Positions 16,501 through 41,671 of a DNA stretch of 64,000 nt are shown here, piece by piece; positions within the stretch are counted from its first letter, which is position 1, and every line of letters starts with the position of its first letter. The stretch comes from a virus (taxonomy: Duplodnaviria; Caudoviricetes): IMG/VR virus record IMGVR_UViG_3300033145_002422. One strand, 5' to 3'. A program made the position numbers and the translations under genes. The notes beneath the pieces were generated by a model, which did no database searches, was not told where the DNA came from, and worked only from the letters and a program-made list of their open reading frames with translations.

Positions 16501-16600
16501 AATGAAGGGCGGCATAGTAATTGACAAGAAGAAATGTCCGAGTAGATTCCTTCTTGAGTCTGGCCTTATTAAAAAGGAAGAATACGAAGGTCATGTTTGA
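13583..16600 (+). CDS. uvrD: UvrD/PcrA SF1 helicase with intein
   Basis: PGSGKT, TFTNKAA, VDESQD, VGDISQ|intein|SIYRFRGA, NYRS, TVHASKGLEF, EERRICYVAMTRA. Confidence 0.95.
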   Translation: MINLNEQQELAVNHLAGPCLVTSCPGSGKTRVLTERTIRLIQQGVIPKNILCITFTNKAANEMKKRICERIGSKDIGMFVGTFHSMCAMVIRAYYKRLGYTSQITILDQDGQKSLMKKCARALDFDIKEDNIDVEHIMYHINTSRELSEDNSEMEDRFKSKKDHWTIAEEYFKVLKKSNLIDFSGLLYEMIRLLEENQVVLEKLHNIFKYIQVDESQDCNKIQYDIINLLGNKYNNIFLVGDISQCVAADSLISVQVGESEECKNIKENSTIFSASGSGNYSLSKVERVYKKYCDNEVAMSIETDSGNKLVCSPDHIVFAGFSGENNTINKNYIVYLMEDDNSNFRIGVTKIYRNKKNGYIYGFKQRVHQQHASRIWFMGVFASFDEALIYEDIWSLQYSIPKNVFKTCHNKDVFQKHIDAVFSTINTKCNALKMLNDFGIMYSYPHHIPYSFGKNKGRNFTVTICSHSNSVFHTCAIYGDDMIDYQLLKDAGIAVRLKSNKRGWKFQKGSINLDFIYDILLQIKRVLGDINIIEKAKLVTGHSLPFCPVSNILEGMNVFVLLDNGQLSVDRVKKCKKIDYSGYMYDFDINRTHNFVANGIVSHNSIYRFRGARHENILDFLVKYPDCKRISLGKNYRSTPEIIEAADKLIRHNDSHIKNDFFTDNSNGDRVICNHFNSQYAEADWVKGKIKSYIDDLGWDYSDVAILYRLNKLSLDMQTSFAKDGIPYCVIGGPNYFNRKEIKDCISMLEFMVNRRNTVAFHRVLSTMNDVGDKTVAAIEAKAELDNVDLYDACESLVDSNSKRIQKASKKISNIYAKDFAGKHGGECLEELTSSFNYFQCLASFCKTDEEFEERKDNINELIIHATEFGKINPNVKDYLNNISLITDADKDAEKNAVTLMTVHASKGLEFPIVFIVGVEDDILPHYRALLEGDTEEEVSDAVEEERRICYVAMTRAMKYLSMTYCRYRKQRMKGGIVIDKKKCPSRFLLESGLIKKEEYEGHV
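14318..15397 (+). mobile_element. Intein (360 aa) in UvrD; insert looks GIY-YIG-like
   Basis: CVAADS start, SPDH block B, end VSHN followed by Ser; no LAGLIDADG motif recognised; VYLM..FRIGVT..R..E pattern. Confidence 0.9.
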
Positions 16601-17316
16601 TTGGAAAAGATATGAAAAGCTATGAGACTCTTATAGATAAACATGAAGGTGAGACGGCGTTTGTTGTTGGAGCAGGCACAAGCTTATATGGAGTCGATTT
16701 ATCTCCGATACATGATCATGTTGTTATATCAGTTAACAGTAGTATTATATTAATGCCTTGGCAAGATGGAGATATAAAAAATAGATATTGGATTTCTAAT
16801 GATAGTGCTGTAAGGGGATGGTCATATTGGGAAGATGTAAAAAAGTCTAAGGCAACAAAGATAATAAGAAATAGTTGGAAAAAATATTATGAAGAGATTC
16901 CTGATTTTTTGGTTTTTTCTCCAAGAAAAGAAGTATCTGTAAATATAAATCTTAGTGAAAAAGCTTTATGTTATTCTAGTAGTATTCCAAGCGCTATAGA
17001 TTTAGCTATACAAATGGGATGTAAAAATATATTTTTATTGGGTGTTGATCATTATTTTAGAAATGGTAGAAGTCATTTTTGGCAGTTGTATAATAAAGAA
17101 TGTCAACCTGTACCTGTTAAAACTGTAGTTCCTCCGTTTGTTTTACAGCAGCATATGTTCAATGTAAATGAACATTCATATGATTTACTAAAATGGTTTG
17201 CAGATTTTAGAAAAGCAAAAATATATAACTGCAATCCATTGAGTATGGTTAAACCATTTGATAAAATAGAATATAAAAATGCATTAGAAATGGTAAAAGA
17301 ATATGGAAAAGTTTGA
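16597..17316 (+). CDS. Maf/DUF115-like putative nonulosonate transferase
   Basis: HEGETAFVVGAGTSL, ISVNS, AIDLAIQMGCKNIFLLGVD. Confidence 0.7.
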   Translation: MIGKDMKSYETLIDKHEGETAFVVGAGTSLYGVDLSPIHDHVVISVNSSIILMPWQDGDIKNRYWISNDSAVRGWSYWEDVKKSKATKIIRNSWKKYYEEIPDFLVFSPRKEVSVNINLSEKALCYSSSIPSAIDLAIQMGCKNIFLLGVDHYFRNGRSHFWQLYNKECQPVPVKTVVPPFVLQQHMFNVNEHSYDLLKWFADFRKAKIYNCNPLSMVKPFDKIEYKNALEMVKEYGKV

Positions 17317-18082
17317 AATAAAGGATTTACAAAATAAGCATAAGGGAGAAATGGCGTTTATAGTCTGTGCTGGTCCATCTCTTCATTATGAAAATGTCAA
17401 TCTTTTAAAAAATTATGTAACTATTGCTGTTAATTCTTCTGTTTTGAAAGTCCCATTTTGTGACTATTTTGTATCTGATGATGAGGGTATAGCCAGATGG
17501 AATTATTATATGGAAGATTTGAAATATATGAATTGTTTATGTCTTTTGTATGAAGATAAGTTGAAGCGATTGACATCTCATCTATCTAAAGAAAGAGTAG
17601 TATTTTTTAAGCATAAGATTTGGTACGATATCTATAAAAGAAAAAAGTATCCAGAGGGTTTGATATTAACCAATGAAGAGCCTATTATTGGAGCTAGAAC
17701 ATCTACAGGGACAGCTATTCATATTGCATATATTATGGGATGTAATCCTATAGTATTATTGGCAAATGATTGTTGTTACGATGGAACTAAAAAATATTAT
17801 TGGCAATTCGATACTGAAAAAAAAGTAATTGCTATGAAAGGAAACGATAGGGAATTTAGTTTTCCTAATAGAGTTTATGAAAAACATAATATGGATAGTC
17901 ATTGTATAGATTTTATAGAATATTTTAATGCTTTAGAAGATTCTATAGAAAAACAAAAAAGAAATGGATTAGATATAGAATTGGTGAATATACAAAAAGG
18001 TGTTTTTAAATTGAAGTATAATAACTTTGATAGTTTAGAGAAAGTTATAGAAAAATATGGAGGTAAAAAAAAATGTCGATAG
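17303..18082 (+). CDS. Maf/DUF115-like putative nonulosonate transferase
   Basis: HKGEMAFIVCAGPSL, IAVNS, AIHIAYIMGCNPIVLLAND. Confidence 0.7.
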   Translation: MEKFEIKDLQNKHKGEMAFIVCAGPSLHYENVNLLKNYVTIAVNSSVLKVPFCDYFVSDDEGIARWNYYMEDLKYMNCLCLLYEDKLKRLTSHLSKERVVFFKHKIWYDIYKRKKYPEGLILTNEEPIIGARTSTGTAIHIAYIMGCNPIVLLANDCCYDGTKKYYWQFDTEKKVIAMKGNDREFSFPNRVYEKHNMDSHCIDFIEYFNALEDSIEKQKRNGLDIELVNIQKGVFKLKYNNFDSLEKVIEKYGGKKKCR

Positions 18083-18408
18083 AAGGCCGCAACCCATTAA
18101 AAGACACTTCGGCAAAAGAAGGTATTTTTTTTGATTGTGAAATTAATTCAAATTCAGATGTTTATTCTTATAGTAACGATAATTGGCAAATAACATATGG
18201 CGATAATAGTGGAAATTCAACTGTTGTAGCTCCTGTTACACAGCATGTAGAATATTCTTATTCTTCATATGCTCCTAACCATACAACTGTTAAAATAAAT
18301 ACCAATGAATTACTGGAAATAAAATTTAATATATTTGATGATTTGTCTCCAAGTGGAAGGATTCATAAATTGTCTGAATACATAAAGAAATTGAGGGAAA
18401 GTATATAA
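18073..18408 (+). CDS. Hypothetical protein
   Basis: Overlapping ORF with GGAGG RBS. Confidence 0.6.
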   Translation: MSIEGRNPLKDTSAKEGIFFDCEINSNSDVYSYSNDNWQITYGDNSGNSTVVAPVTQHVEYSYSSYAPNHTTVKINTNELLEIKFNIFDDLSPSGRIHKLSEYIKKLRESI

Positions 18409-18567: not shown

Positions 18568-19287
18568 ATGATACAAAATTATAAAATACTTTCTATAGTT
18601 CCCTGTAGGGCTGGCAGTATGGGCTTACAAGGAAAAAATTATAAGGATTTTAACGGAAGACCTCTTTTCTATTGGTCTCTAGATGCTTCTATAAAAAGCA
18701 AATATGTTGATTTAACAGTTGTTTCCACGAATGATAATAATGTTCAAGGAAGAATGTATGGATATATGCATTCTAATATTAAATCTGAATTGCAATGTAT
18801 GTGGAGGCCAGAAGAATTATGTACTGGAACTTCCAAGAGCGAAGATACTTTGATTCATGTGAGTAAAGAACTTAAAAACAAATATGATATTATTATTATG
18901 TTGCAGCCAACTTCGCCAATAAGGACTAATAATCTTCTTGATAGGTGTATAGAGAAATTGATAGAAGAAAAAGCAGATAGTTTATTAACTGTTGGAAAGG
19001 GGAATTCTTTTTTATGGAAGATTATAGATGGAATACCAGTAGCAGATTATGATTATCAAAATAGACCTATGAGACAAGAAATAAAAGAAAATGAATTGGT
19101 TTATGCTGACGATGGAAATGTTTATGTAATGAAGAGAGATATACTATTGAAAAATAAATGTAGAATTGGTGGAAAAATTACATTGTTTGAGAGCGATAGT
19201 TTTCAGACTTTGCAGATAGATACAATTGAGGATTTTCAAATAATGGAGAATATTGTTAAAATTATTGGAGGTCCATTGTCTGTTTAG
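18568..19287 (+). CDS. neuA: Acylneuraminate cytidylyltransferase (CMP-nonulosonate synthetase)
   Basis: PCRAGSMGLQGKN, VSTND, RPEEL, LQPTSP, RPMRQ, IDTIEDF. Confidence 0.92.
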   Translation: MIQNYKILSIVPCRAGSMGLQGKNYKDFNGRPLFYWSLDASIKSKYVDLTVVSTNDNNVQGRMYGYMHSNIKSELQCMWRPEELCTGTSKSEDTLIHVSKELKNKYDIIIMLQPTSPIRTNNLLDRCIEKLIEEKADSLLTVGKGNSFLWKIIDGIPVADYDYQNRPMRQEIKENELVYADDGNVYVMKRDILLKNKCRIGGKITLFESDSFQTLQIDTIEDFQIMENIVKIIGGPLSV

Positions 19288-19744: not shown

Positions 19745-19987
19745 ATGAAAAAGGAAATAAAAAACAGTTATAAGTGGTTTACAAACAAGGATTGTGAATA
19801 TTATCCTTGCAAAAAGGAGCCTATAAATTGTAAATTTTGTTTCTGCCCCTTATATAATATGAAAAATTGTCCAGGCACTCCAATTTATTTGGATGATGGA
19901 ACCAAAGATTGTAGTAAATGTCGATTCCCACATAAACTAGAAAATTATGATAAGATTATGTCAATTCTGAAAAGCCTTAGCAAATAG
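19745..19987 (+). CDS. Small cysteine-rich zinc-finger-like protein
   Basis: CEYYPC..NCKFCFCPLY..KDCSKCRFPH signature. Confidence 0.75.
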   Translation: MKKEIKNSYKWFTNKDCEYYPCKKEPINCKFCFCPLYNMKNCPGTPIYLDDGTKDCSKCRFPHKLENYDKIMSILKSLSK

Positions 19988-20058: not shown

Positions 20059-20760
20059 ATGGTTAGAAATTTAATGCTATGTTTATTGGTTGTTGTTATC
20101 TGTTTAGGAACTTTTTTAGGAATTTTTGTCGGATGTTCTATGAATATCGATGAAGACGTTGATATTCAAAGAGCATTTTTGGGAAAGATTGTCAATCCTG
20201 CTAATGGCGAAGAAGGTTTTAAAGACGCTCGCTATTATGTTGAAGAAGTTTTTTCTGATTTTAGTAAGGTTAAAAATGGCAATAGGTTTGTGGCTACTAA
20301 CCTAGCTGAATATAGCTATAACAAGAACAGCCGCCATACTTTGCATGATTTATATCCTGGGAACATAGTAGAAGTTTACGAAATGAGTAATGGTAAACAT
20401 TTCTTTTCTATGACTCCAACGGTCATATTTTTCGTTGCTAAAGTTCCTACTGAGTTGGAGTTGAAAGATGAACTGTCTAAATGCTCGGATAAGCATAGGG
20501 AAAAATATCAAGCAATCATCGAAGCTAAAGATTCGAGGTATGTTCTGATAAGGCAACAATATAATAATGGCTTTGGCAGAACTATTCCTTTTGATAAAGA
20601 AAGTTTGAAAGATTCTGGACAGGATGTTTTATATGCCGCTATTAACCTGTCTGAGGAGAATGGCAAAACTCACAATTTGAAGGCCGGAACGTATGTAAGC
20701 GTATTCTCAATTAAGAAATCGAATAGCGGAGGAATATACTTCTTTAATTCTACCCCATAA
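20059..20760 (+). CDS. Putative lipoprotein / secreted protein
   Basis: Hydrophobic N-terminus ending FVGC (lipobox-like); AGGAG RBS. Confidence 0.6.
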   Translation: MVRNLMLCLLVVVICLGTFLGIFVGCSMNIDEDVDIQRAFLGKIVNPANGEEGFKDARYYVEEVFSDFSKVKNGNRFVATNLAEYSYNKNSRHTLHDLYPGNIVEVYEMSNGKHFFSMTPTVIFFVAKVPTELELKDELSKCSDKHREKYQAIIEAKDSRYVLIRQQYNNGFGRTIPFDKESLKDSGQDVLYAAINLSEENGKTHNLKAGTYVSVFSIKKSNSGGIYFFNSTP

Positions 20761-20999: not shown

Positions 21000-21875
21000 A
21001 TGGCTATCGGAAAATCGGTTAACATTGTTGCTGAGGCTTGCTGTAATCACCAGGGTAATTTAGACCTCGCTTTTGATATGATCAAAACAGCCAAGTTGTG
21101 TGATGTAGATTATGTAAAATTCCAAAAGAGGAATTGCGTTAAGGCTGTACCGAAGCATATGCATAATCAGCCTCATCCATATGCGGCAAATTCGTTTGGC
21201 GAGACCTATTTACAGCATAGGGAGGCGTTGGAGTTTACGATAGATCAGCATAAGCAGTTAAAAGATTATTGTGACTCTATTGGCATAAAATATGCCTGTT
21301 CGGTTTGGGATGAAGATTCGGCAGCAGAAATTATATCTCTAAACCCTGAGTATATCAAGATTCCAAGTGCTATGAATTACAATTTTGAATTGTTGGATTA
21401 TGTCTTTGATAACTATGATGGAGATATACATATTTCATTTGGAATGATAACGAGAAATGAGATTAACGATTTGATTTCTCATTTGAAAGGACAAAAAAAC
21501 CATATCGTTGCCTATTGGACCACTAGTGGATATCCGGTTTCATTTGACGAATTGTATTTGTTGGAAATAGGAAATCTCAAAAAGTATTTTGAAGTTGGAT
21601 ACAGCGGTCATAATCTCGGAATTGCCGTGGACATGGCTACGATAGTTTTGGGTTGTACTTGGGTAGAAAGGCATTTCACTTTGGACAGAACAGCAAAGGG
21701 AACGGATAATGCTGCTAGTCTAGAACCAGCAGGCTTATCTAAGTTGGTTCGTGACTCAAAAGCTGTTATTAAGTCTTTGCAATATAAAAATATAGACTTA
21801 ACTGAGGATGAAAAAGAAACTAGGGAGAAATTAAAGATATGGGAAAAAAAATTAATTCACCCAAACATAATCTAG
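21000..21875 (+). CDS. neuB: N-acylneuraminate/nonulosonate synthase (no C-terminal SAF/AFP-like domain)
   Basis: AEACCNHQG, VKFQKR, KIPS, SGYP, GYSGH, ERHFTLDR, GTDNAASLEP. Confidence 0.93.
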   Translation: MAIGKSVNIVAEACCNHQGNLDLAFDMIKTAKLCDVDYVKFQKRNCVKAVPKHMHNQPHPYAANSFGETYLQHREALEFTIDQHKQLKDYCDSIGIKYACSVWDEDSAAEIISLNPEYIKIPSAMNYNFELLDYVFDNYDGDIHISFGMITRNEINDLISHLKGQKNHIVAYWTTSGYPVSFDELYLLEIGNLKKYFEVGYSGHNLGIAVDMATIVLGCTWVERHFTLDRTAKGTDNAASLEPAGLSKLVRDSKAVIKSLQYKNIDLTEDEKETREKLKIWEKKLIHPNII

Positions 21876-22483
21876 AAGGGAAAAGATTCGGTAAATTAGT
21901 CGCACAAAAAGAATATAAAAGAGAAACCAAGGATCTTCCTAGCGGAAAGGCTTATTTCCTTTATTGGCTATGTAAATGTGATTGTGGAAATGAGAAATGG
22001 ATTAATGCTAATCATTTGAAAAGGGGACAAACTAGAAGTTGTGGTTGTTATAGCGTTGCTTATCGTTGCCGAGGGCGTTTGCTGGAAAAAGGATTAGCGG
22101 CAAAAAACAGATGCTATGCTCAGTACGAGACAGTTGCTAAAAGAAATAATAGAAAGTTTGAATTAACTTTTGAGCAGTTTATCGACATTACATCTCATAA
22201 TTGTTATTATTGTGGAGCAGAACCGTCTAATATGAGTAAATCTGGCAAATATAGCGGAGATTATATCTATAATGGTGTAGATAGATTAGATAATTCCAAA
22301 GGGTATATCCTAACTAACTGCGTGCCGTGCTGTAAGACATGTAACAAAACTAAATTAAAAATGTCAAGAAAAGAATTTGTGGACTGGGTTTCTAGGGTAT
22401 ATGACCATATAGTTACCGGGGAGACTTGGGATGCCCACAGAAGCTACAGGAGACCCAGGGACGCATTTACTCCTTCTCCATAG
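21839..22483 (+). CDS. Free-standing HNH homing endonuclease
   Basis: GKRFGKL..WLCKCDCG..SCGC, CYYCG, GVDRLDNSKGY..NCVPCCKTCN. Confidence 0.85.
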   Translation: MGKKINSPKHNLEGKRFGKLVAQKEYKRETKDLPSGKAYFLYWLCKCDCGNEKWINANHLKRGQTRSCGCYSVAYRCRGRLLEKGLAAKNRCYAQYETVAKRNNRKFELTFEQFIDITSHNCYYCGAEPSNMSKSGKYSGDYIYNGVDRLDNSKGYILTNCVPCCKTCNKTKLKMSRKEFVDWVSRVYDHIVTGETWDAHRSYRRPRDAFTPSP

Positions 22484-22752: not shown

Positions 22753-22995
22753 ATGTATTATAAAGAGGCTATAGAAAAAGCAATACATTGGAGAAGCGGG
22801 GTCGAAGAAGTTGTATTTCCAGAAATAATGTTATATTTAGCGGCAATTATTCATAATGATCCAGATGCTGAAGTTTTTCGTGAATTATGTAAGATAAAAG
22901 CAATGCATAGAGAATATTATGATTTATATGAAAAGTTAGATCAAAAATATTCAAAATATATTTATATTGATGGAGATAGTTATGAATCTGGATGA
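22753..22995 (+). CDS. Hypothetical protein
   Basis: GGAGG RBS. Confidence 0.65.
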   Translation: MYYKEAIEKAIHWRSGVEEVVFPEIMLYLAAIIHNDPDAEVFRELCKIKAMHREYYDLYEKLDQKYSKYIYIDGDSYESG

Positions 22996-23602
22996 TAAAG
23001 CAAAAAATATTAAATTATTAATTATTGACATTGACGGAACGATTACCAACGGAGATTATCAGGTTAATGAAGATGGAAAGGTTACGAAATCTTTTTATAC
23101 GAGAGATTTTTCTTATATAGAAAAAATACTTAAAATGGGTGATTTTCCAATATGCGTATTACTGTTGACAAGTTCTTGGGATAATTGCATAGTTAATAAA
23201 TATATGAAACTCTCATATTGTGATAGATGGAACTTTTTACTTAAAATTCATATAGAAGATAAAAAGAAATATATCGAAGAAGAAATTATCCAAGTAAAAA
23301 ATAAAAGTCCTTTTAGCATAGTTTGTGATAATAGTGATGATATGACAGTAAAAACAATAGAAAAGAAACATCCTTATTTAAATGTTTTTTCTAGAATTAC
23401 TTGGGATAATATTGCCTATATTGGCGATGGCATAAATGATTTGGAGTCTATGAAATTGGCTTCTATAACAGGATGCCCAGAAGATGCTGAAGAAGAAATT
23501 AAAGAAGAATCTCATTTTGTATCGAAATGTAATGGTGGAAGAGGAGCAGTAGCTGAATTTATAAAATATCTGATTTCTCTTAGGGAGACTAAAAATGAGT
23601 AA
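22967..23602 (+). CDS. KdsC-like HAD phosphatase
   Basis: IKLLIIDIDGTITNG, KSFYTRD, YIGDGINDL, GGRGAVAEF; probable start ATG 22982. Confidence 0.88.
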   Translation: MMEIVMNLDDKAKNIKLLIIDIDGTITNGDYQVNEDGKVTKSFYTRDFSYIEKILKMGDFPICVLLLTSSWDNCIVNKYMKLSYCDRWNFLLKIHIEDKKKYIEEEIIQVKNKSPFSIVCDNSDDMTVKTIEKKHPYLNVFSRITWDNIAYIGDGINDLESMKLASITGCPEDAEEEIKEESHFVSKCNGGRGAVAEFIKYLISLRETKNE

Positions 23603-25035: not shown

Positions 25036-25455
25036 ATGGGGGGGTTAATAGTTATTAGCGAATTTCATTCATGCACGATTTCTCTCACGGATAATCAATG
25101 TATTATAGAAGCATTGGTTGAAATGGGATATAAACCTAAAGTTAGCGATAAACCTCAAAATCTTTATGGATATCTTGGAGATAAAAGAGAACAAAAAGCT
25201 CATATTATAATTCCACGTTCACAGATAACCAATGCCAGTAATGATATAGGTTTTGAGAAAATTGGTAAAAACTATATTGTTCATATCAGTCAATATGATG
25301 AACAAATACATAGTTTTGATATAGATAAGTTGAAGCAGTTATATGGAAAACACAGGATAAAGAAATTTGTTAAAATGAAAACTGGGAAATATAATATTAA
25401 GAGTCAAAAGGTAAAGAAAGATGGAACTATAGAAATAATTATTAGAACCTTATAA
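25036..25455 (+). CDS. DUF1257 (Ycf35-like) protein
   Basis: SEF..TISLTD..IIEALVEMGY, NDIGFEK, LKQLY, DGTIEI. Confidence 0.65.
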   Translation: MGGLIVISEFHSCTISLTDNQCIIEALVEMGYKPKVSDKPQNLYGYLGDKREQKAHIIIPRSQITNASNDIGFEKIGKNYIVHISQYDEQIHSFDIDKLKQLYGKHRIKKFVKMKTGKYNIKSQKVKKDGTIEIIIRTL

Positions 25456-25467
25456 AAGGAGAGCAAT

Positions 25468-26067
25468 ATGTCGCAAAAAATAAGCAGAAAAATAAAGGAA
25501 AGGCAAAAAAGAAAAAATAGAAAAAAGCAAGAATCTGAGTTACTTCAGAAAAATGCACAAATAAGAACAAGAGTCATTAAGTTTGATGCGCCAATGTTAT
25601 ATTCTCCAGCGTTGGATATATTGGGTAAAGAACATTTTGAAAAGATTAACAGTGATTTTGGATTTAATATTCTTAATAGATTAAAGAGAACGGTTATCGC
25701 TTTTAAAAATGGTGCTGGACTTTCTGCTAATCAAATTAATCTTCCATATAATGTTTCTGTTTTAAGATTTGATACAAAGAATAATGATACATTTGTTATG
25801 ATTAATCCAAAAATCGTTGAACATGGCGAAGACATGGAGGAAGAAATAGAAGGATGTTTGTCATTCCCTGAGTATTATACAAAAATTAAAAGATATCATA
25901 ACATAAAGGTTGAATATTTTGATGAGAATTTTGAGAAGAAGACTGCTAATTATCATGGATATGAAGCGAGAGTTGTTCAGCATGAATTAGATCATAACCT
26001 TGGCAAGCCATGCCTTGGTGAATTTTATAGACAAGAGAAAGAAAAATCTTTATTAAAAAGAACATAA
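25468..26067 (+). CDS. def: Peptide deformylase
   Basis: GAGLSANQI, EGCLS, QHELDH. Confidence 0.95.
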   Translation: MSQKISRKIKERQKRKNRKKQESELLQKNAQIRTRVIKFDAPMLYSPALDILGKEHFEKINSDFGFNILNRLKRTVIAFKNGAGLSANQINLPYNVSVLRFDTKNNDTFVMINPKIVEHGEDMEEEIEGCLSFPEYYTKIKRYHNIKVEYFDENFEKKTANYHGYEARVVQHELDHNLGKPCLGEFYRQEKEKSLLKRT

Positions 26068-26087: not shown

Positions 26088-26870
26088 ATGGAGATTTTAA
26101 CAAGAGATAGTTTTTTATCAAGAAAAAAAAGTGATACTATAGTTATATATGGAAGCGGTTATTCTATTAATGATATTACTGAAGATCAGTGGAGTAAACT
26201 AAACCAATTTGATAGTATAGGATTTAACTGGTTTCTTAAGAGTAGGAGACCAGTTACTTTTTATTTATTGAGAGAGCAGGATATTTGGAGGAAAAATGGA
26301 ACAGGAGACGAATCTAGAAGAGAGTTAAGGGATATATTAAATCAGTGTTATATAGATACATGTTGCATAGTTGTTGATCTCTCTAAATCCCACCACAAGT
26401 GGCAAACGACAGAACACTATGGTAAACCTATATATCAAAAACATATTAATCTGTCAGGCGTTATTGTAAAGGAAATTTTTGCTAAAAAAAGTTTGACTAA
26501 ATACATAAAAAATAAAAACAGTAAAAAAGTATTATGCGATTGTTTCGAATCCCATGATATATTTGATAATGGTCTTATATATGATTTTTGCTCCTTAGTC
26601 AGTGTACTCCATTTGGTTACTTTTTTACAATATAAAAGAATAATATTTGCTGGTATCGATTTATACGATCATAGATACTTTTGGCTTAAAAGTAATAAGT
26701 TACGAACTGCTACAAGGGAAAAGGGGCGATTATTAGATTCAAAACATTTTGTTGCTGATTATACGTGTAGAGTAGTTGGTACTTATAGTAAATATTTTAA
26801 AAATGTTGATATTTCGGTATTGAATCCGAAATCTCTTTTAACTAAAAAAATAAAAACATGGAGTTTTTAA
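26088..26870 (+). CDS. Maf/DUF115- or sialyltransferase-like protein
   Basis: IYGSGYSI, SIGFNWF, YKRIIFAGIDL. Confidence 0.55.
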   Translation: MEILTRDSFLSRKKSDTIVIYGSGYSINDITEDQWSKLNQFDSIGFNWFLKSRRPVTFYLLREQDIWRKNGTGDESRRELRDILNQCYIDTCCIVVDLSKSHHKWQTTEHYGKPIYQKHINLSGVIVKEIFAKKSLTKYIKNKNSKKVLCDCFESHDIFDNGLIYDFCSLVSVLHLVTFLQYKRIIFAGIDLYDHRYFWLKSNKLRTATREKGRLLDSKHFVADYTCRVVGTYSKYFKNVDISVLNPKSLLTKKIKTWSF

Positions 26871-27640: not shown

Positions 27641-27654
27641 GAATTTAAATTAAT

Positions 27655-30135: not shown

Positions 30136-30152
30136 ATATAAGGGATAATTAT

Positions 30153-31154: not shown

Positions 31155-32052
31155 TATTGATATAGGTGCAAAAGATGCAGATTCTGGTAAAGGAAAGTTC
31201 CTTTTGAGACTTTCTCATGCAATGTCTGATCTTGGAGTTGATATCGTTAATAAAAAAGCAGATATTAATTTGATTTTGCCTTGTGAAAAAATGGATAAAA
31301 AAGCTAAGGTTAATATTGTTAGGGTTGATGGGTTAATTTTGAATTCTGCTCAAAATTATAAACAGAAAAATAATTTATTAGTAAAATCTATGAAGAATGC
31401 AGATGCTATTATATATCAAACAAAATTTTGTTACACAGCATATAAAAAATTTTTAAGAATAAAAAAAGAGTATGCTATTATTGTTAATGGAGCTGATCCT
31501 AACGAGTTTTTACAAAGGAATGTTAAAAACTTTTTTCTTGCTAGTTGTAAGTGGAGACCGCATAAGAGGCTGAAAGAAATTGTAAAGTGTTTTTTGTTAT
31601 CTCTTGATTCTGGATTAGATTCATATTTAATTGTAACTGGAAAACCAGATTATATAAAAAAACATCCAAGAATTAAATATGTTGGTTGGCAGGGAATAAA
31701 TGAATTAAAGGTTTATTTGTCAGAAGCAATAGCTAGTTTACATCTAACATGGCTAGATTGGTGTCCTAACTCTATGGTAGAATCTATTGTAGCTGGGTGC
31801 CCAGTTATTTATACAGATTCTGGTGGGCATTCTGAAATTGGTGGAGATAATACTGGTGTTTCTATTCCTGATATTCAATGGGATTTTAAACCATGTAAAC
31901 TTTATAATCCCCCATCTCTTAATTCCGATTTAGTAGTAGAAGCAATGCTTAGAATGAAAAAAGAAAAAATTGTTATTTTGAAGCCTGAACTTTATATAGA
32001 AAATGTTGCAAAAAAATATATAGAGTATTTTAATTATTTATTGGAGAAATAA
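31129..32052 (+). CDS. Glycosyltransferase family 4-like
   Basis: RVDG, IIVNGAD, WRPHKRL, DWCPNSMVESIVAG; probable start 31138. Confidence 0.88.
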   Translation: MQRMKVSFNIDIGAKDADSGKGKFLLRLSHAMSDLGVDIVNKKADINLILPCEKMDKKAKVNIVRVDGLILNSAQNYKQKNNLLVKSMKNADAIIYQTKFCYTAYKKFLRIKKEYAIIVNGADPNEFLQRNVKNFFLASCKWRPHKRLKEIVKCFLLSLDSGLDSYLIVTGKPDYIKKHPRIKYVGWQGINELKVYLSEAIASLHLTWLDWCPNSMVESIVAGCPVIYTDSGGHSEIGGDNTGVSIPDIQWDFKPCKLYNPPSLNSDLVVEAMLRMKKEKIVILKPELYIENVAKKYIEYFNYLLEK

Positions 32053-35123: not shown

Positions 35124-35897
35124 ATGAGCATTATACGCCAATGCCGAATGAATAAGGGGGCAAAAAAAACATTTTCATCGTTTCAAAAAAGGTACGGATT
35201 AAAATCTAAGATTAGGACTGACAAACCGTGTATTTTTTTTGGAATATATTGGAATGATCTTGAATCACTATTATGCCACAAATCATTAGCTATAGCTATC
35301 TGGAGAGGTTCTGATATTCTAAGGAAAGATAGTCTAAAACTGTGCAAAAATAAAAATAAAATTAAACATGTTGCTATCTCTTCTTTTATAGAAAAAGATT
35401 TAAAAGATGCAGGAATCCCTTATCGGTTTATACCTATTACTGGTTCAGACCCAGACATGTTTACTCCGTGTCCTTTAGGAGATGAAATTTATGCCTATAT
35501 TCCTAGAGATAGGTATAGGTTTTATGGAGGCTCTATTGTTGACGAAATAAGAACGAAGTGCAAATTTAAAATTAATATTGTTGATGACGCTTCTAAAATG
35601 CCTAGATCTGATTTGATTGATCTTTATAAAAAGTGTTTTCTTGGGTTGAGATTTACTCCTCATGATGGGATAGCAAATTCTGTTATTGAGATGGGATTGA
35701 TGGGAAGGAAATGCATATATAATGATTTAAAAGTACCTAATACACTTTCGTGGGATGCTAAAAATATTGTAGATATATTAAATAAAATAGAGTTGGAATC
35801 CAGAAACATAGGCAAAGTAAATGATGACGTTGCTGAAAGTATAAGGAGATATGTCGATATCGGAAAAGACTGGTTAAATACTAAATATTGGAGATAA
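35124..35897 (+). CDS. Putative glycosyltransferase-like protein (paralog of 37724..38500)
   Basis: FFGIY, WRGSD, HVAISSFI, GLRFTPHDGIANSVIEMGL. Confidence 0.6.
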   Translation: MSIIRQCRMNKGAKKTFSSFQKRYGLKSKIRTDKPCIFFGIYWNDLESLLCHKSLAIAIWRGSDILRKDSLKLCKNKNKIKHVAISSFIEKDLKDAGIPYRFIPITGSDPDMFTPCPLGDEIYAYIPRDRYRFYGGSIVDEIRTKCKFKINIVDDASKMPRSDLIDLYKKCFLGLRFTPHDGIANSVIEMGLMGRKCIYNDLKVPNTLSWDAKNIVDILNKIELESRNIGKVNDDVAESIRRYVDIGKDWLNTKYWR

Positions 35898-35934
35898 ATG
35901 AAGGTATAGGGGGATAAATTCAGTATTTTACTGA

Positions 35935-36732
35935 ATGGAGCCACTTGTATCTTTCGTTATTCCATTGTATAATTACAAAAAATATATTGGTTATTGTATC
36001 CAGTCTTTGCTTAATCAGACTTATAATAATTTGGAAATTATAGTTGTTGATGACTGTTCTACTGATTCGTCTGTAGAAAAGGTAAAGCAATTTTCAGACC
36101 CTAGAATTCAAATTATAGAATTAAAGAAGAATGGTGGATATTCAGCAGCAAAGAATCATGGTATTATTAGATCTAAGGGCGATCTTATATGCGTCCTTGA
36201 TGCTGATGATATGTTGACTAAAGATTCTGTAGCTTTAAGGGTTGATAAAATAGAACAATCTAAATTAGATTTTTTATCAGCTAATGCAATAGCAGTTTAT
36301 GGATGTATATCGTTAAATGATTGTTACAATATTAATGTTTCAAAGATTCCAATATTTTCGCCAAAATTGCATCTAAAGAAAAAGAATTCTTTGGAGCGAT
36401 TCTCAACACCTTATAATATTCATGCACAAACTGTTATGGTTAGGAGAAGTGTTTATAACAAGTTCGGACTGTATGATGAAAGACTTCGTTCGAGATCAGA
36501 CAGGGAAATGTGGTGGCGATTTTTTGGGCAGAAGACTGGCGACAAGGAACATATTTCTAGAACTTTCTTAGATTATCCGGTTGTTTATTATAGATATCAC
36601 GATAAGTCAATGACAACTAAAAGAAATAAAGATAAAAGATACGATAAAGAAGTAAGAAGTTTAGCGAAAAAAGCGTATAAACTGAGAATCAATGGTATAA
36701 CCAGGGACAATACAAGGATGGAAGAATTATGA
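35935..36732 (+). CDS. Glycosyltransferase family 2
   Basis: VIPLYN, VDDCSTD, LDADD, HAQT, GLYDE..SDREM. Confidence 0.9.
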   Translation: MEPLVSFVIPLYNYKKYIGYCIQSLLNQTYNNLEIIVVDDCSTDSSVEKVKQFSDPRIQIIELKKNGGYSAAKNHGIIRSKGDLICVLDADDMLTKDSVALRVDKIEQSKLDFLSANAIAVYGCISLNDCYNINVSKIPIFSPKLHLKKKNSLERFSTPYNIHAQTVMVRRSVYNKFGLYDERLRSRSDREMWWRFFGQKTGDKEHISRTFLDYPVVYYRYHDKSMTTKRNKDKRYDKEVRSLAKKAYKLRINGITRDNTRMEEL

Positions 36733-37724
36733 AAGTATCTTTTGTAATGCCAACATTTAAACATCATGAATTTATTAGTGAGTCTATTAAATCTATCCTG
36801 TCTCAAACTTATTCTGATTTTGAACTTATTGTTGTTCCTGTTATTGAGGATACAAAAACGATAAAAATACTTAATTCTATGAAGGATAATAGGTTGAAAG
36901 TTATTCCATCTAATTTTGCATTGATAACTCACCAAATGAATTTGGGAATATTATCAGCGAAAGGCGAATATTTTATGATGTTTGCAAGTGACGATTTTCT
37001 TTACAAAGATAGTTTGGAAAAAACATTGAATTTTGCCATAAAGAAAAATGCTGTGGTGACTTATCCTAATTATCACGTTGGGAATCAAAGATTAGATATT
37101 AGGAGACTGTATCGGGCAAAAGAGTTTAGTAAGAGAACTCTTTTCAAAGGAAATTATATTACTGATGTTAGTCTTATAAAAAAAGATGCTTTTATGAAAT
37201 ATTTTCCTATGAAAGTTTCAGATGGTAAATCAAGAATATACAATGTTTACAAGGCATTGGCTGAAGATAAAGAATATTCTTTTAGGATATTTCATTATAA
37301 CCGTCCAACATTCATATATCGTCAACATAGCAATTCTGTTCATTTGAAAGAGAAATCCCAGAGGAAGTTTCAAGCAGTAGAGTTAATATGTTCTGATGCG
37401 CCGGCAGTTTCCAGCTTACCTAGAAAATATTTAAGCAAATTAAAGAAACCAGATTTTGCTGTTTATTTGAATTCTCCAATAGATTATATAAAAAATACAT
37501 CTGCTTTTAAATATAAAAAAGTTATTACTCGTTGGAGAAATGGAGATATGGGCATGTTTAATTCGAATTTATTTCATAGAGTATATAATATTGTAGATAG
37601 CGATTGCATATTGTTTGAGATGGCCTCTTTAGGTACAAGGCATATAATTAAGGAAGCGGAATGGGATCTCAATCAATATGTTGTAGAAGATAATTTAAGA
37701 GATTTATCTGTGGAGGCATATTAA
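36729..37724 (+). CDS. Glycosyltransferase family 2
   Basis: VSFVMPT, SILSQTY..FELIV, ASDD, YRQH. Confidence 0.8.
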   Translation: MKVSFVMPTFKHHEFISESIKSILSQTYSDFELIVVPVIEDTKTIKILNSMKDNRLKVIPSNFALITHQMNLGILSAKGEYFMMFASDDFLYKDSLEKTLNFAIKKNAVVTYPNYHVGNQRLDIRRLYRAKEFSKRTLFKGNYITDVSLIKKDAFMKYFPMKVSDGKSRIYNVYKALAEDKEYSFRIFHYNRPTFIYRQHSNSVHLKEKSQRKFQAVELICSDAPAVSSLPRKYLSKLKKPDFAVYLNSPIDYIKNTSAFKYKKVITRWRNGDMGMFNSNLFHRVYNIVDSDCILFEMASLGTRHIIKEAEWDLNQYVVEDNLRDLSVEAY

Positions 37725-38500
37725 TGAAGATAAACCAATGCTATTTGTCTACAACGGTGAAACATGGTGGGAAATTTGTTAATTTCCCTCAAAAATATGG
37801 TTGCACTAAATATAAGACAAAAGATAAACCAGCATTTTTTTTCGGACTTTATACAGCAGAAGACTTAAAAGTTTTAAAGAATCATAGGTCTATGGCTGTT
37901 GTTATATGGAGGGGAGGAGATGCAACTAGAGAAAAAAATATAAAACTTTCATCTTCTCGACATAATATAAAACATATAGCTATTTCTTCGTTTATTGCTG
38001 ATGATTTAAAATCCACTGGTATAAATTATAAATTTCTACCTATAGTAGGTTCTAATATAAAAAAAATGAAAGCGACTCCTCTTGGTAAATGTATATATGC
38101 GTATGTTCCAAAAAATCATCGTAAGTTCTATGGTGGAGATATAATAGATAAACTTAAAAAAAGAAGCAATTATAAGATTATAGTATCGAGTAGCTCATCT
38201 AGATATAGTAAAAAGAAGATGCTAAATATATATGATAATTGTTTTTGTGGTCTTAGACTAACAGAACATGATGGGATAGCAAATACTGTAATCGAACTTG
38301 GGCTAAAAGGTAGGAAGTGTATTTATAATGGGTGTACTCCAAATGCAATTTGCTGGAATAAAAAAGATATCGATTCTATTTTGCTTAGGATTGATGAAGA
38401 GGCTAAGAAAATAGGTTCTACAAATACAGAATTAGCTAAACAGGTTGCTAAATATATTGATATTGGAGAAGAATGGTTAGATACGAAATATTGGAAATAA
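37724..38500 (+). CDS. Putative glycosyltransferase-like protein (paralog of 35124..35897)
   Basis: FFGLY, WRGGD, HIAISSFI, GLRLTEHDGIANTVIELGL. Confidence 0.6.
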   Translation: MKINQCYLSTTVKHGGKFVNFPQKYGCTKYKTKDKPAFFFGLYTAEDLKVLKNHRSMAVVIWRGGDATREKNIKLSSSRHNIKHIAISSFIADDLKSTGINYKFLPIVGSNIKKMKATPLGKCIYAYVPKNHRKFYGGDIIDKLKKRSNYKIIVSSSSSRYSKKKMLNIYDNCFCGLRLTEHDGIANTVIELGLKGRKCIYNGCTPNAICWNKKDIDSILLRIDEEAKKIGSTNTELAKQVAKYIDIGEEWLDTKYWK

Positions 38501-38519: not shown

Positions 38520-38807
38520 ATGAGTATTCATAAAAGAGAATATAAAAGTTATGATAGTTATCTTGTTGATAGGGTGGCTATTCTTGAGTCCTGTAAGTTT
38601 ATAGATGAAGTTATTTGTGATGCTCCATTAAAAATAACAGAAGAATATTTGGAAGAGCATCGTATAGATTCGGTAATACATGGAAACGATATGAATCCAT
38701 TTTTTTCCGAATGCTATAGCGTTCCTATGCAAAAGGGTATAATGGAATTTTTGCCATATTATGATGGGATATCAACATCTAAGATTATTGAAATAATTAA
38801 AGAGTAA
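38520..38807 (+). pseudogene. C-terminal half of a TagD/ECT-type cytidylyltransferase
   Basis: RVAILESCKFIDEVI..AP, IHGND, GISTSKII; HxGH N-terminal half absent. Confidence 0.7.
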
Positions 38808-38873: not shown

Positions 38874-39740
38874 ATGAATATTGGGTTAATAGGGTATGGA
38901 ATCGTTGGAAAGGCTGTTGAACACGGTTTCAAGGATAAATGTAATGTTTTTATATATGATCCAAAATTGCCTGAAAAAAGTGAGACTTCTATTAAAGATT
39001 TGATTTTAAAAGTTGATTTTGTATTTATTGCTGTCCCTACCCCGATGCTAGATATATATGGAGGTCCATCAGATACATCAATTATGGATAGTGTTATGAC
39101 AGAAGTTAATAATGCTTGTATAGATGTTATTAAGCCGCCTATAATTATTATCAAAAGTGCTATTTTGCCGTCTAGATTAGCAGATTATGCTAAATTTTTC
39201 CCATCATTAAAACTCGTTAAAAGTCCAGAATATTTGACTGATAAAAATTCAATGGATGATTTTGTTAATGCTAAACTTCTTGTTCTTGGTGGAGAAAGGG
39301 AGTATACGGATCAAGTTGAGAAGTTGTTTAAAGAATTTAGTATTTGTAAGCCGTGTAAAGTAGGACATTGTGATTTGATTGCTGCTGGTTTTTTGAAGTA
39401 CATGGAAAACTGCTATTTAGCGATGAAGGTTATTTTTATGAACCAATTTTATGAAGTTCTTAGAAAGTCTGGTTCGAAATCTACATGGGAAGAGGTAGCA
39501 GAAATATTTCATTATGATTCAAGGATGGGAAACAGTCACTACGGCGTTCCTGGTCCAGACGGAGACTTCGGATATGGCGGGAAGTGCCTGCCAAAAGATG
39601 TAAATGGGTTCATATATTATGCTCAATCTCTTGGGTACGATTTGAGTTTGATGAAGGAAGTTTGGAATATAAATATGGATATCCGCAAAGATATAGACTG
39701 GGCTAAAATCGAAGGTGTTGTAACTGAGAAGGATAATTAG
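38874..39740 (+). CDS. ugd: UDP-glucose/GDP-mannose dehydrogenase family
   Basis: GYGIVG, FIAVPTP, SPEYL, KYMEN, GYGGKCLPKD. Confidence 0.88.
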   Translation: MNIGLIGYGIVGKAVEHGFKDKCNVFIYDPKLPEKSETSIKDLILKVDFVFIAVPTPMLDIYGGPSDTSIMDSVMTEVNNACIDVIKPPIIIIKSAILPSRLADYAKFFPSLKLVKSPEYLTDKNSMDDFVNAKLLVLGGEREYTDQVEKLFKEFSICKPCKVGHCDLIAAGFLKYMENCYLAMKVIFMNQFYEVLRKSGSKSTWEEVAEIFHYDSRMGNSHYGVPGPDGDFGYGGKCLPKDVNGFIYYAQSLGYDLSLMKEVWNINMDIRKDIDWAKIEGVVTEKDN

Positions 39741-39749
39741 GAGGTTTAC

Positions 39750-40682
39750 ATGAAAAGATGTTTGGTAACAGGAGGGGCTGGTTTTATAGGTTCTCATCTA
39801 GTTAGAGGACTTTTAGATGCTGGATATTTTGTTAGAGTTATTGATAATTTATCTACAGGGTCCATTAAGAATTTAGATGAAATATTGTCCGATATAGAAT
39901 TTCTTCCTCAAGATATGAGAAATTATAATAGTTGTTTGAAAGCATGTGATAATGTTGATTATGTTTTTCATGAAGGTGCAATTCCTAGTGTTCCCAAAAG
40001 TATTGACGACCCCGTAAATACATTTACGAATGGTATTGATGTGACACATAATATGTTGATGGCATCTGTAGAGAAAAAGGTTTCGAAGTTTATTTTTGCA
40101 TCTAGTTCAAGCGTTTATGGGGCAAACAAAGCTGTTATAAAAGTTGAGAGCCTGCCACTTCTTCCAGTTAGTCCATATGCCAGCAGTAAAGCAGCAGCAG
40201 AAATGTACCTTCTATCGTTTTATAAGTCTTTTGGTTTAGAGTCTATTGGTTTAAGATATTTTAATGTGTTTGGATCAAGACAGAATCCAACTTCTCAATA
40301 TGCAGCGGTTATTGCATCTTTTTGTCATAGAATGATAAATGGCATGAATCCTATCGTATATGGAGACGGAACTCAATCAAGAGATTTTACATATATTGAT
40401 AATGTTGTTAATGCTAATATGTTAGCTATGGATAGTAAACTAGATGGATGCTCTGTCAATATAGGATGTAACAACAATATTTCTCTCAACGATATTGTTT
40501 CAGATATTAATGAGATTTTAGAAACAAATCTAGAAGCAGTATATGAGCCAGTAAGACAGGGAGATGTTCAGAGTACTCATGCAGATATTTCGTTGGCAGG
40601 ACGGCTTATTGGGTATACACCAGTTGTTGATTTTAAGGATGGTTTATCGAAAACATTAGAATGGTATCGAAACAATAAATGA
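39750..40682 (+). CDS. NAD-dependent sugar epimerase/dehydratase (extended SDR)
   Basis: TGGAGFIG, ASSSSVYG, YASSK, RYFNVFG, GDGTQSRDF. Confidence 0.93.
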   Translation: MKRCLVTGGAGFIGSHLVRGLLDAGYFVRVIDNLSTGSIKNLDEILSDIEFLPQDMRNYNSCLKACDNVDYVFHEGAIPSVPKSIDDPVNTFTNGIDVTHNMLMASVEKKVSKFIFASSSSVYGANKAVIKVESLPLLPVSPYASSKAAAEMYLLSFYKSFGLESIGLRYFNVFGSRQNPTSQYAAVIASFCHRMINGMNPIVYGDGTQSRDFTYIDNVVNANMLAMDSKLDGCSVNIGCNNNISLNDIVSDINEILETNLEAVYEPVRQGDVQSTHADISLAGRLIGYTPVVDFKDGLSKTLEWYRNNK

Positions 40683-41671
40683 AATTATTAACGATACTTG
40701 GGACTAGACCTCAGTATATAAAATTCAAACCGCTTTATGATTATTTTATTATTAATAAAATAGATAATTTATCTATTGACACAGATCAACATTATGACTA
40801 TAATATATCTGGAGTATTTTTAGAAGAATTAGGAATTTCTATAGATAGACATTTATTTTCTAGTCATGAAAGCTCTTTCGGATTTCTTTCCGATTCTTTA
40901 TTAAAGATACATGGTGCATTAAGCGAATATAAACCTGATATCGTAATTGTTTTGGGAGATACGAATACTTCTTTAATATCTTCTATAGTAGCTTATCAGA
41001 TGGGAATTAAAGTAGCTCATATAGAAGCCGGAATACGATGCGGAGATAAAAGTAGACCTGAAGAAATGAACAGGATTCTTATTGATGAATTAGCATCGTT
41101 TCATTTTATTTCCAGGCAAAAAGATTCTGCCAATGTATCTAATCCCGTTTTAGTAGGTGATTTAGAATATCATTTTTTAAATAGTTTGGAAAAAGAAAAT
41201 CCTAAATTATTTAATTTTGTTTATGAAGATTGTTTGATAATGACAATTCATAGGCAAGAAAATACTACAAAAGAAAGATTAGAAACAATTTTTAGTGGTT
41301 GTGAAAAACATAATGGAGATATAGTATTTACTGTTCATCCAAGAACTAGAAAAGTGATAAAAGATAATGGTATACTGGTTCCAAAGAATATAATTATGAT
41401 AGATCCTATCGGTTATTTTAAAATGATTAACTATTTATCAAGGTGCAAAGGAATAATATCTGATAGCGGTGGAGTAACAAAGATAGCACCTTTTTTTGGA
41501 AAGAAATGCTTAATACCTTCTAAGAATGCAGAATGGTCTGAAGTTATTGATGAGGGGTATGGAATGAAGGGAATAGATGTTTCATGGTTTAATGATTATG
41601 AAATGCCTAGAAGAAAAGATTTTTATTATATTGAGAATGTATGTGAAAGAATAGTTGATACAATAAGATAA
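40679..41671 (+). CDS. UDP-N-acetylglucosamine 2-epimerase (WecB/NeuC family)
   Basis: GTRPQYIK, QHYD, GDTNT, HIEAG, PEEMNR, TIHRQEN, DSGG. Confidence 0.92.
   Translation: MKLLTILGTRPQYIKFKPLYDYFIINKIDNLSIDTDQHYDYNISGVFLEELGISIDRHLFSSHESSFGFLSDSLLKIHGALSEYKPDIVIVLGDTNTSLISSIVAYQMGIKVAHIEAGIRCGDKSRPEEMNRILIDELASFHFISRQKDSANVSNPVLVGDLEYHFLNSLEKENPKLFNFVYEDCLIMTIHRQENTTKERLETIFSGCEKHNGDIVFTVHPRTRKVIKDNGILVPKNIIMIDPIGYFKMINYLSRCKGIISDSGGVTKIAPFFGKKCLIPSKNAEWSEVIDEGYGMKGIDVSWFNDYEMPRRKDFYYIENVCERIVDTIR

Follow-up and report, generated by a model that had tools for sequence, protein, structure and literature searches.

A candidate cytoplasmic glycosylation system with a conserved nonulosonate core and a hypervariable transferase island in a lineage of huge phages

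A 64-kb stretch (64,000 nucleotides, here called the window) of IMG/VR record IMGVR_UViG_3300033145_002422, part of a 255,885-bp contig of an uncultivated phage, carries a long run of glycan genes between a UvrD helicase gene that ends at 16600 and a topoisomerase gene that starts at 43002, and about one-tenth of the genome is spent on glycan enzymes. The region is made up of two units, a conserved core at 16.6-23.6 kb, which encodes two short Maf-type transferases (mini-Mafs A and B), a NeuA-like cytidine monophosphate (CMP)-nonulosonate synthetase, a NeuB-family synthase and a KdsC-family phosphatase, and a hypervariable island of 15.6 kb (26088-41671). A preliminary description of the window had drawn a single glycan factory of ~25 kb; the glycan genes are indeed present, but they fall into these two units and are interspersed with genes for an HNH endonuclease, a deformylase, and DUF1257, Cys-rich and lipoprotein-like proteins. 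The gene identities, the solubility of the products, the conservation and synteny among huge phages and a Maf-like fold were observed directly, and the balance of the evidence leans modestly towards a phage-encoded system for glycosylation in the cytoplasm, to which both units would contribute.

In the proposed scheme, the short NeuB-type synthase would condense phosphoenolpyruvate (PEP) with a host hexose-6-phosphate, for which mannose-6-phosphate (mannose-6-P) is the most economical candidate, to give 2-keto-3-deoxynonulosonic acid 9-phosphate (Kdn-9-P); the adjacent phosphatase would strip the 9-phosphate, the NeuA-like enzyme would make the CMP-sugar, and the two paralogous mini-Mafs, which consist of the catalytic domain only, would move the sugar onto an acceptor, most likely a protein, without a lipid carrier. 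In the island, a trio of WecB-like, Ugd-like and TviC-like enzymes would probably supply the uridine diphosphate (UDP) sugars UDP-N-acetylmannosamine or its uronic acid (UDP-ManNAc(A)) or UDP-N-acetylgalactosaminuronic acid (UDP-GalNAcA), while a third protein of the ulosonate-transferase fold, 11 soluble glycosyltransferases (GTs) and two or three methyltransferases would build and O-methylate the remainder of a strain-specific glycan. We consider the 9-phosphate route with Kdn as its product to be evenly poised. Kdn appears to be the most economical product because Kdn-9-P synthases take mannose-6-P, which any host supplies; ManNAc-6-P, leading to N-acetylneuraminic acid (Neu5Ac), or another host-derived sugar may be the substrate instead. 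The combination of synthase, phosphatase and CMP-synthetase, in which 9-phosphate logic had been seen before, fits the CMP-Kdn pathway of Bacteroides thetaiotaomicron, which consists of a Kdn-9-P synthase, the Kdn-9-P phosphatase BT1713 and a CMP-Kdn synthetase (Wang et al. 2008, as outlined in PMC6200933); in the account given there, only routes whose starting sugar is phosphorylated require a dedicated phosphatase.

The conserved core and its phage setting

The three nonulosonate enzymes were recovered by Pfam, NCBIfam and PDB matches on the + strand where the preliminary description had placed them (Table 1). The NeuB-family protein (291 amino acids, aa) is a short form from which the C-terminal SAF/antifreeze-like domain of canonical NeuB, PseI and NANS is absent, its NCBIfam match ending at model position 274 of 329, and its closest PDB match, 6ncs, is likewise short (290 aa). 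Residues E12, K40, Q42, S123, S146, S202, H204, E223, H225 and D236 were invariant across 30 homologues (53-84% identity) and line up with the residues that bind metal and PEP in Neisseria meningitidis NeuB, within the ICEIGINHEG, KHQ, KIGS, GLSDH and ERHFT blocks. Scores against the equivalog models were below cut-off for both NeuB_NnaB (TIGR03569, 176 against 399.65) and PseI (TIGR03586, 124 against 340.25). The NeuA-like protein found its best PDB matches in the CMP-Neu5Ac synthetases 9t4z, 6ifd, 1eyr and 1qwj, scored below the PseF and KdsB equivalog cut-offs of NCBIfam, and has a homologue adjoining NeuB in 30 of 38 related loci. The phosphatase scored below cut-off for KdsC (69 against 208), Kdn-9-P phosphatase (66.6 against 180) and YrbI (62.6 against 106.95), matched the KdsC-like C-terminal domain of mouse CMAS (3ewi), KdsC entries and BT1713 (3e81) in the PDB, and keeps HAD motifs I (DxDGT, 'liididgt') and IV (GDxxxD, 'yigdgindle') when aligned to 3ewi and 2p9j; it is kept in 10 loci. 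No NeuC-type epimerase, kinase, pseudaminic or legionaminic acid (Pse/Leg) aminotransferase or acetyltransferase was found in the core.

Short NeuB proteins of ~280 aa without the SAF domain have thousands of metagenomic homologues, many of them on contigs of 100-550 kb. A NeuB profile matched 34 viral contigs in IMG/VR, whereas a scan of the same database with the single protein returned nothing; megablast of the region against GenBank phages gave no match, and tblastn against the same phages gave only three records for NeuB, all weak, and none for mini-Maf B. In the closer relatives (NeuB ~47-80% identical), gene tables and tblastn revealed a shared order of RecA/UvsX, primase, SpoVS, UvrD, mini-Maf A, mini-Maf B, NeuA, NeuB, phosphatase, two unassigned proteins, DUF1257, deformylase, glycosyltransferases and topoisomerase, with the core following UvrD on contigs of 25-548 kb, several of which are viral records in IMG/VR. 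The DUF1257 and deformylase genes (25036..26067) are a conserved, non-glycan backbone found in the same order in the relatives and form the left border of the island; its right border consists of three small open-reading frames (ORFs), starting at 41683, which are conserved beside the topoisomerase gene.

The stretch between deformylase and topoisomerase varies widely. It is ~6 kb long and contains no glycosyltransferase in one relative (L004), and extends to ~69 kb (about 308-377 kb) in the 548-kb contig G002, where it holds orthologues of five transferases of the window, two further NeuB-like genes, a second NeuA, a gene like ORF 26088 and four SDRs. Orthologues of ORFs 27655, 28485, 29425, 30153 and 31129 occur in L008, L009 and G002. 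In relative L001 (NeuB 80% identical), the position next to the deformylase that ORF 26088 takes up in the window is occupied by two ORFs of the GT29 family and one CgtA-like ORF (4593-6581); GT29 is the eukaryote-type sialyltransferase family. The GC content of the island equals that of the remaining window, which is ~30%.

The preliminary description had called the nonulosonate pathway complete and had counted a UDP-N-acetylglucosamine 2-epimerase as its first step. The gene is present, at the far end of the island, but it encodes a non-hydrolysing enzyme like WecB and not NeuC: the NCBIfam score was 172.4 for WecB (cut-off 210.15) and 41.4 for NeuC (cut-off 235.9), and the best PDB relatives were 4neq, a non-hydrolysing enzyme of Methanocaldococcus jannaschii, and 8sxv, a WbpI-type UDP-ManNAc3NAcA epimerase. 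Its gene stands 19 kb away from NeuB and comes immediately after those for the Ugd-like and TviC-like enzymes, and no homologue was present in the 38 related loci or in G001 and G002 when these were read whole. Because the enzyme is WecB-like, distant from NeuB and absent from relatives that keep the core, we do not count it as the entry step to the nonulosonate, and the claim of a complete pathway starting with it falls. Its gene neighbourhood and family make a role in the supply of UDP-ManNAc(A) or UDP-GalNAcA, shared with its two neighbours, more likely than one in feeding NeuB.

The contig is that of a phage and not of a cell, as the preliminary description had held, because its flanks consist of phage replication genes with inteins and the contigs syntenic with it are viral records in IMG/VR, up to 548 kb long; one of them (G002, 548 kb) is rated 100% complete by CheckV. 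By Pfam and PHROG matches, the upstream flank encodes a DnaE-like polymerase, a UvsX-like recombinase with an intein, a primase, a Cas4-type exonuclease and the UvrD helicase, also with an intein, while the downstream flank encodes the topoisomerase, a clamp loader with an intein, a sigma factor, a sliding clamp and a CCA-adding enzyme. That the contig might be cellular or mis-assembled, and the cluster an ordinary bacterial polysaccharide locus, is hardly credible: some relatives have been deposited as metagenome-assembled genome (MAG) contigs of Phenylobacterium or Asgard archaea, which would favour it, but all plausible genes lie on the + strand across 64 kb, the flanks contain inteins and have matches among the PHROG replication families, no tRNA, rRNA or other Rfam RNA family was detected in the window by a tRNA scan and an Rfam search, and the relatives include the complete viral genome just mentioned. 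Contigs of 548 kb, 557 kb and 138 kb from this huge-phage lineage are filed at NCBI under Asgard archaea or Phenylobacterium MAGs. These labels are probably the result of mis-binning, given that deformylase and DnaE are encoded in both the window and its syntenic relatives, and a sigma factor in the window.

Mini-Maf transferases and candidate acceptors

Three Maf/DUF115-like transferases had been proposed in the window, and all three were recovered, the two mini-Mafs by Pfam and the third (ORF 26088) by language-model features and predicted structure only. Mini-Mafs A and B are 27% identical. The phage proteins, at 239-260 aa, correspond to the central domain only and lack the two terminal domains that flank it in the ~600-aa Mafs of bacteria. 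Both look catalytically competent, because G24, S26, N44, S45, D60, G146 and D156 are common to the two sequences; the likely true start of mini-Maf A is the ATG at 16612. The pair has orthologues in six related loci (L001, L004, L005, L007, L009 and L018), and the sequence homologues of mini-Maf B are nearly all unnamed metagenomic proteins, several of them on contigs of 120-560 kb. An AlphaFold2 (AF2) model of mini-Maf B, built from 18 phage sequences with a predicted local distance difference test (pLDDT) score of 87.9, found its top structural match in residues 259-521, the central catalytic domain, of Magnetospirillum Maf (5mu5; Z 16.2, root-mean-square deviation 3.0 over 198 residues). 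Lesser matches were the archaeal MptE kinase (Z 11) and the sialyltransferases CstII, Cst-I, ST3Gal, ST6GalNAc and ST8Sia (ST8SiaIII), at Z 8-10. ORF 26088 grouped with Atlas clusters that bear the MptE-like, WaaZ_KDO_III (3-deoxy-D-manno-octulosonic acid (Kdo) III transferase) and Maf families, matched the mini-Maf profile weakly by hhalign (probability 27%), and has an orthologue in G002 that adjoins the second NeuA/NeuB pair.

The enzymes of the region look soluble, as had been noted. A hydropathy scan of the window identified a single clear transmembrane helix, at the N-terminus of the lipoprotein-like protein 20059-20760, and no polytopic membrane protein, since no + strand ORF of at least 50 aa had more than one hydrophobic segment. 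Also in line with the preliminary description, no flippase, Wzy polymerase, ABC exporter, initiating phosphoglycosyl transferase or oligosaccharyltransferase was recognised in the window or in the complete 548-kb relative G002. In the latter, the sole ORF with six transmembrane segments encodes 246 aa and has no Pfam family, no polytopic ORF of at least 400 aa is present, and none matches a flippase or polymerase in size and number of transmembrane segments.

A protein is the probable acceptor. This is favoured because the mini-Maf B model prefers Maf to the sialyltransferases, because the initiating transferase, flippase, polymerase and exporter of a lipid-linked pathway were missing from both the window and the complete relative, and because the core is conserved across diverged phages. 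By our analysis a virion protein is a credible form of this acceptor, though it falls a little short of even footing; the argument for it is an analogy with the virion glycosylation of mycobacteriophages (cited in PMC12619734). The fullest version, on which we pass a single joint judgement, is tentative: a huge-phage lineage would coat its own particles with a strain-specific, O-methylated heteroglycan bearing a Kdn-like acidic sugar, assembled in the cytoplasm directly on virion proteins by a mini-Maf and about a dozen soluble transferases, with the island growing and shrinking (6-69 kb) under diversifying selection.

Several observations pull the other way. The cluster lies among replication genes and not beside capsid or tail genes. 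Solubility is compatible with use of the host's undecaprenyl-phosphate machinery, since lipid-linked pathways, too, usually employ soluble GT2 and GT4 enzymes, and the negative findings on membrane proteins cover G002 and the window, which is 64 of the ~256 kb of its own contig. WaaZ-type Kdo transferases, which act on lipid-linked glycans, share the MptE/DUF115 fold. As to the chemistry, substrates are not assignable from sequence scores to NeuB, NeuA or the phosphatase, because all three score below the NCBIfam equivalog cut-offs; the phosphatase, at 211 aa, exceeds the ~165-190 aa of capless enzymes, matching in two stretches around an extra segment of ~40 residues, and it is absent from relative L004.

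Remodelling of the host surface is an alternative that we think rather unlikely. The CMP-nonulosonate and other sugars would in that case be fed into the host's undecaprenyl-phosphate, teichoic-acid, lipopolysaccharide (LPS) or S-layer, flagellin or pilin machinery, and the altered surface would, for example, exclude superinfecting phages or keep progeny off debris. The literature reads viral neuA/neuB/neuC genes and LPS clusters in this way (10.1101/655167), and the position of the cluster in the replication region and not in a virion module, the resemblance of ORF 26088 to WaaZ Kdo transferases, a TagD-like remnant that hints at past CDP (cytidine diphosphate)-glycerol chemistry, and a glycosyltransferase content as hypervariable as that of serotype loci all agree with it. 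Against it, the initiation, export and polymerisation machinery listed above was not recognised in the window or in the complete relative, mini-Maf B is far closer to a protein-glycosylating Maf than to glycan sialyltransferases, and the core is kept across phages whose NeuB is as little as 57% identical and whose hosts presumably differ, which is easier if the acceptor travels with the phage.

A protein outside the virion is an improbable acceptor, whether a host flagellin or pilin modified to block motility or receptor use or a secreted or internal protein made by the phage. The characterised Mafs do act on flagellins in the cytoplasm (Campylobacter, Aeromonas and Magnetospirillum; title of PDB entry 5mu5), but the mini-Mafs have neither of the terminal domains of those larger enzymes, and no flagellar genes were identified nearby, among the scanned ORFs of the window. 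Still less can be said for DNA hypermodification, in which the transferases would decorate modified bases of the phage DNA in the manner of the T4 glucosyltransferases and their relatives; this we regard as very improbable. The cluster lies between a helicase and a topoisomerase, and there is precedent for di- and trisaccharides built on DNA by phage glycosyltransferases (Pyle et al. 2024, as cited in PMC12619734). In the window we saw nothing that would make DNA the acceptor, and neither a hydroxymethylase nor another base-modifying gene was noticed; Maf and sialyltransferase folds act on hydroxyls of proteins or glycans, the 14 transferases far exceed the number in known DNA systems, and no nonulosonate is known on DNA.

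Relation to known glycosylation systems

Large, clade-variable sets of sugar-nucleotide enzymes and soluble glycosyltransferases that work independently of host membrane machinery are a feature of the fibril glycosylation clusters of giant viruses (Mimivirus, Megavirinae), which infect eukaryotes and whose fibril glycans contain viosamine, bacillosamine and rhamnosamine. The phage region has no homology to these clusters beyond shared glycosyltransferase folds. If the virion reading is true, a heteroglycan coat on the phage particle would be the bacterial-virus counterpart of giant-virus fibril glycans.

A parallel to the core is found in the flagellin O-glycosylation islands of Campylobacter, Helicobacter, Aeromonas and Magnetospirillum, which likewise combine a nonulosonate synthase, a CMP-synthetase and a transferase of the DUF115/MptE fold, and which act in the cytoplasm without a lipid carrier. 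The phage region differs from them in that its Mafs are reduced to the central domain, flagellin genes and the upstream Pse/Leg enzymes are missing, and two conserved Maf paralogues are accompanied by a third, WaaZ-like protein. With the B. thetaiotaomicron CMP-Kdn system it shares a NeuB-family synthase, a KdsC-family HAD phosphatase and a CMP-synthetase encoded together, and a logic that, as outlined in PMC6200933, needs no epimerase or kinase and draws mannose-6-P from central metabolism. Unlike that system, the module described here is borne by a phage, falls below the equivalog thresholds with all three enzymes, has a phosphatase with an extra segment, and is coupled to Maf-fold transferases.

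Among phages, soluble glycosyltransferases have been proposed or shown to decorate the capsid or tail proteins of the mycobacteriophages that encode them (Freeman et al. 2023, as cited in PMC12619734). In the summary given there, these systems comprise one to a few glycosyltransferase genes adjoining structural genes and involve no nonulosonate, whereas the present phage has its 14 transferases and a sugar-synthesis module in the replication region. Aquatic phages carry sialic-acid-type synthesis genes beside other sugar-modifying genes, as does the window, examples being the neuA/neuB/neuC and LPS-type cluster of LBVG_26 from Lake Biwa (10.1101/655167) and the LPS clusters of cyanomyoviruses (Sullivan et al. 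2005, as cited in 10.1101/655167). Their synthesis genes follow the NeuC route or encode Pse-type enzymes, the clusters have been read as modifying the host surface, and no Maf-type transferase or phosphatase route has been reported in them. A full-text literature search found no paper on phage Maf-type transferases or on a phosphatase-route nonulosonate module in huge phages. Viral neuA/B/C genes (10.1101/655167) and virion glycosylation in mycobacteriophages (cited in PMC12619734) are thus already known; the contribution of the window is to separate the conserved core from the hypervariable island and to reassign the epimerase.

Should the acceptor be a virion protein, these would be the first phages known with sialic-acid-like sugars on their particles. 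Consequences would then follow for adsorption, for detection by host defences or grazers, and for how immune systems recognise phages. The mini-Mafs would be the smallest natural Maf-type enzymes and are attractive for structure-function work and glyco-engineering, and the short NeuB with its KdsC-like phosphatase is a candidate source of Kdn-type chemistry from central metabolites alone. Whatever the acceptor, the deformylase-topoisomerase island is a hotspot at which huge phages gain or lose up to ~70 kb of glycan genes.

Island genes and other features of the window

The island encodes 11 glycosyltransferases in addition to the three ulosonate-transferase-fold proteins of the region as a whole (Table 1), which bears out an earlier count of about 11 GT or GT-like genes and is based on Pfam, an Atlas search, paralogy and a structure model. 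The first six (26858, 27655, 28485, 29425, 30153 and 31129) form a block that spans 26858..32052. The paralogues 35124 and 37724 gave no relative in the PDB by sequence when joined in a two-sequence profile, and the fold search supplied one: the AF2 model of 37724 (pLDDT 95.1) is a compact GT-B fold that matches BshA (3mbo, GT4) at Z 18.1 over 246 of 258 residues. The family to which both belong counts 1268 representatives, among them fusions to GT2 domains. Three methyltransferases had been claimed, of which two are FkbM enzymes and the third, 32644, is weak. Both an Ugd and an SDR epimerase are present as described, except that the Ugd-like protein (288 aa) is truncated and lacks the C-terminal domain; it keeps the catalytic cysteine of GGKCLPKD and ends where the C-terminal UDP-sugar domain would start. 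The TagD-like gene lacks the N-terminal 40 residues, which include the region of the nucleotide-binding motif, and the DNA upstream shows no continuation; it is probably a decaying remnant.

Table 1 Features of the glycan region (positions in the window; single numbers are ORF starts)
Feature	Position	Strand	Basis
Mini-Maf A, MptE/DUF115-like transferase, 239 aa	16597..17316	+	PF01973 30.7 bits, E 3e-7, below cut-off
Mini-Maf B, 259 aa, G-x-GPSL motif	17303..18082	+	PF01973 42.9 bits, above cut-off
Ser/Tyr/Asn-rich ORF, 111 aa, overlaps end of mini-Maf B	18073..18408	+	no Pfam match; no homologue in any related locus
NeuA-like CMP-nonulosonate synthetase	18568..19287	+	CTP_transf_3 PF02348 56.6 bits (cut-off 22.6), E 4e-15
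Cys-rich small-domain (zf-like) protein	19745..19987	+	PF04071 E 2e-20; also adjoins NeuB in L001 and L002
N-terminally anchored lipoprotein-like protein	20059..20760	+	hydropathy 2.94 at residues 6-24; no homologue in any related locus
NeuB-family nonulosonate(-9-P) synthase, short form without SAF domain	21000..21875	+	PF03102 198 bits (cut-off 22.1), E 2e-58
HNH-endonuclease-like mobile gene, overlaps NeuB stop	21839..22483	+	sequence reading: Cys-rich, 'DRLDNSKGY...CC..CN' motif; no Pfam match
KdsC / Kdn-9-P-phosphatase-family HAD hydrolase	22967..23602	+	NCBIfam below cut-off, PDB matches, HAD motifs
Two conserved proteins, 171 aa and 154 aa	23595..24586	+	no Pfam family; homologues after phosphatase in L001, L003, L009 and L028
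DUF1257 protein	25036	+	PF06868 E 5e-10
Peptide deformylase	25468 (to 26067)	+	PF01327 E 7e-35
Third MptE/Maf/WaaZ-like (ulosonate-transferase-fold) protein	26088..26870	+	Atlas: language-model features 0.94, predicted structure TM 0.64-0.78
GT8-like glycosyltransferase (weak)	26858	+	Pfam
GT2 glycosyltransferases	27655, 29425, 35935, 36729	+	Pfam
GT4 / GT4-like glycosyltransferases	28485, 31129	+	Pfam; mutual paralogues, E 2e-33
GT-B / GT4-like glycosyltransferase	30153	+	Atlas search
FkbM methyltransferase	32057-32632	+	PF05050 E 2e-13
Possible S-adenosylmethionine methyltransferase (weak)	32644-33276	+	Methyltransf_23 E 0.02 only
Glyco_trans_1_2 glycosyltransferase	33358-34254	+	PF13524 E 3e-15
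FkbM methyltransferase, second	34244-35122	+	PF05050 E 3e-16
Compact GT-B glycosyltransferases	35124, 37724 (block 35124..38500)	+	paralogues, 44% identical; no usable Pfam match
TagD-like cytidylyltransferase	38520..38807	+	PF01467 profile positions 49-132 only; TIGR01518 positions 41-123
Truncated Ugd-like dehydrogenase, 288 aa	38874 (trio 38874..41671)	+	Pfam/NCBIfam
TviC-like SDR 4-epimerase	39750	+	Pfam/NCBIfam
WecB-like non-hydrolysing 2-epimerase (Epimerase_2)	40679 (to 41671)	+	Pfam/NCBIfam

Relaxing the E-value limit of the Pfam searches yielded nothing usable for ORFs 18073, 19253, 21839, 23595, 24122, 26088 and 35124/37724. The nonulosonate module appears to be a target of homing elements, because the HNH-like gene has homologues that adjoin NeuB in L005-L007 and do so twice in G002. 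The 154-aa protein at 24122-24586 consists of two copies of a ~50-residue unit (YNHIRV..LLFTD..KN.EDLP), and its gene, conserved in the relatives, always follows the phosphatase.

In the 68-kb relative G001, a separate pair of GT4 and GT2 genes follows very large ORFs of 530-2226 aa, which had no PHROG match and no Ser/Thr tract. Terminase (PF03237, PF17289), HK97 capsid (PF05065) and tail sheath (PF04984) gave no Pfam match in the records of five relatives, which we take as a sign of divergence or of low sensitivity in the first-look filter and not of absence.

The inteins of the flanks, recognised by Pfam and by PHROG intein or LAGLIDADG matches, lie within the UvsX-like recombinase (5791-8127), UvrD (13583-16600) and the clamp loader (47639-49882). 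A SpoVS homologue at 9902-10258 (E 4e-15), present at the same place in the relatives, may hint at the host group, and a PF18909 domain at 46861-47250 (N-terminal domain, dATP/dGTP diphosphohydrolase, MazZ-like; E 7e-24) may hint at purine-base replacement chemistry. G002 also encodes a GluR0-like ligand-gated ion channel, with a solute-binding domain and an ion-channel pore, and a collagen-repeat protein (L060:9552-10634 and L075:5896-7053).

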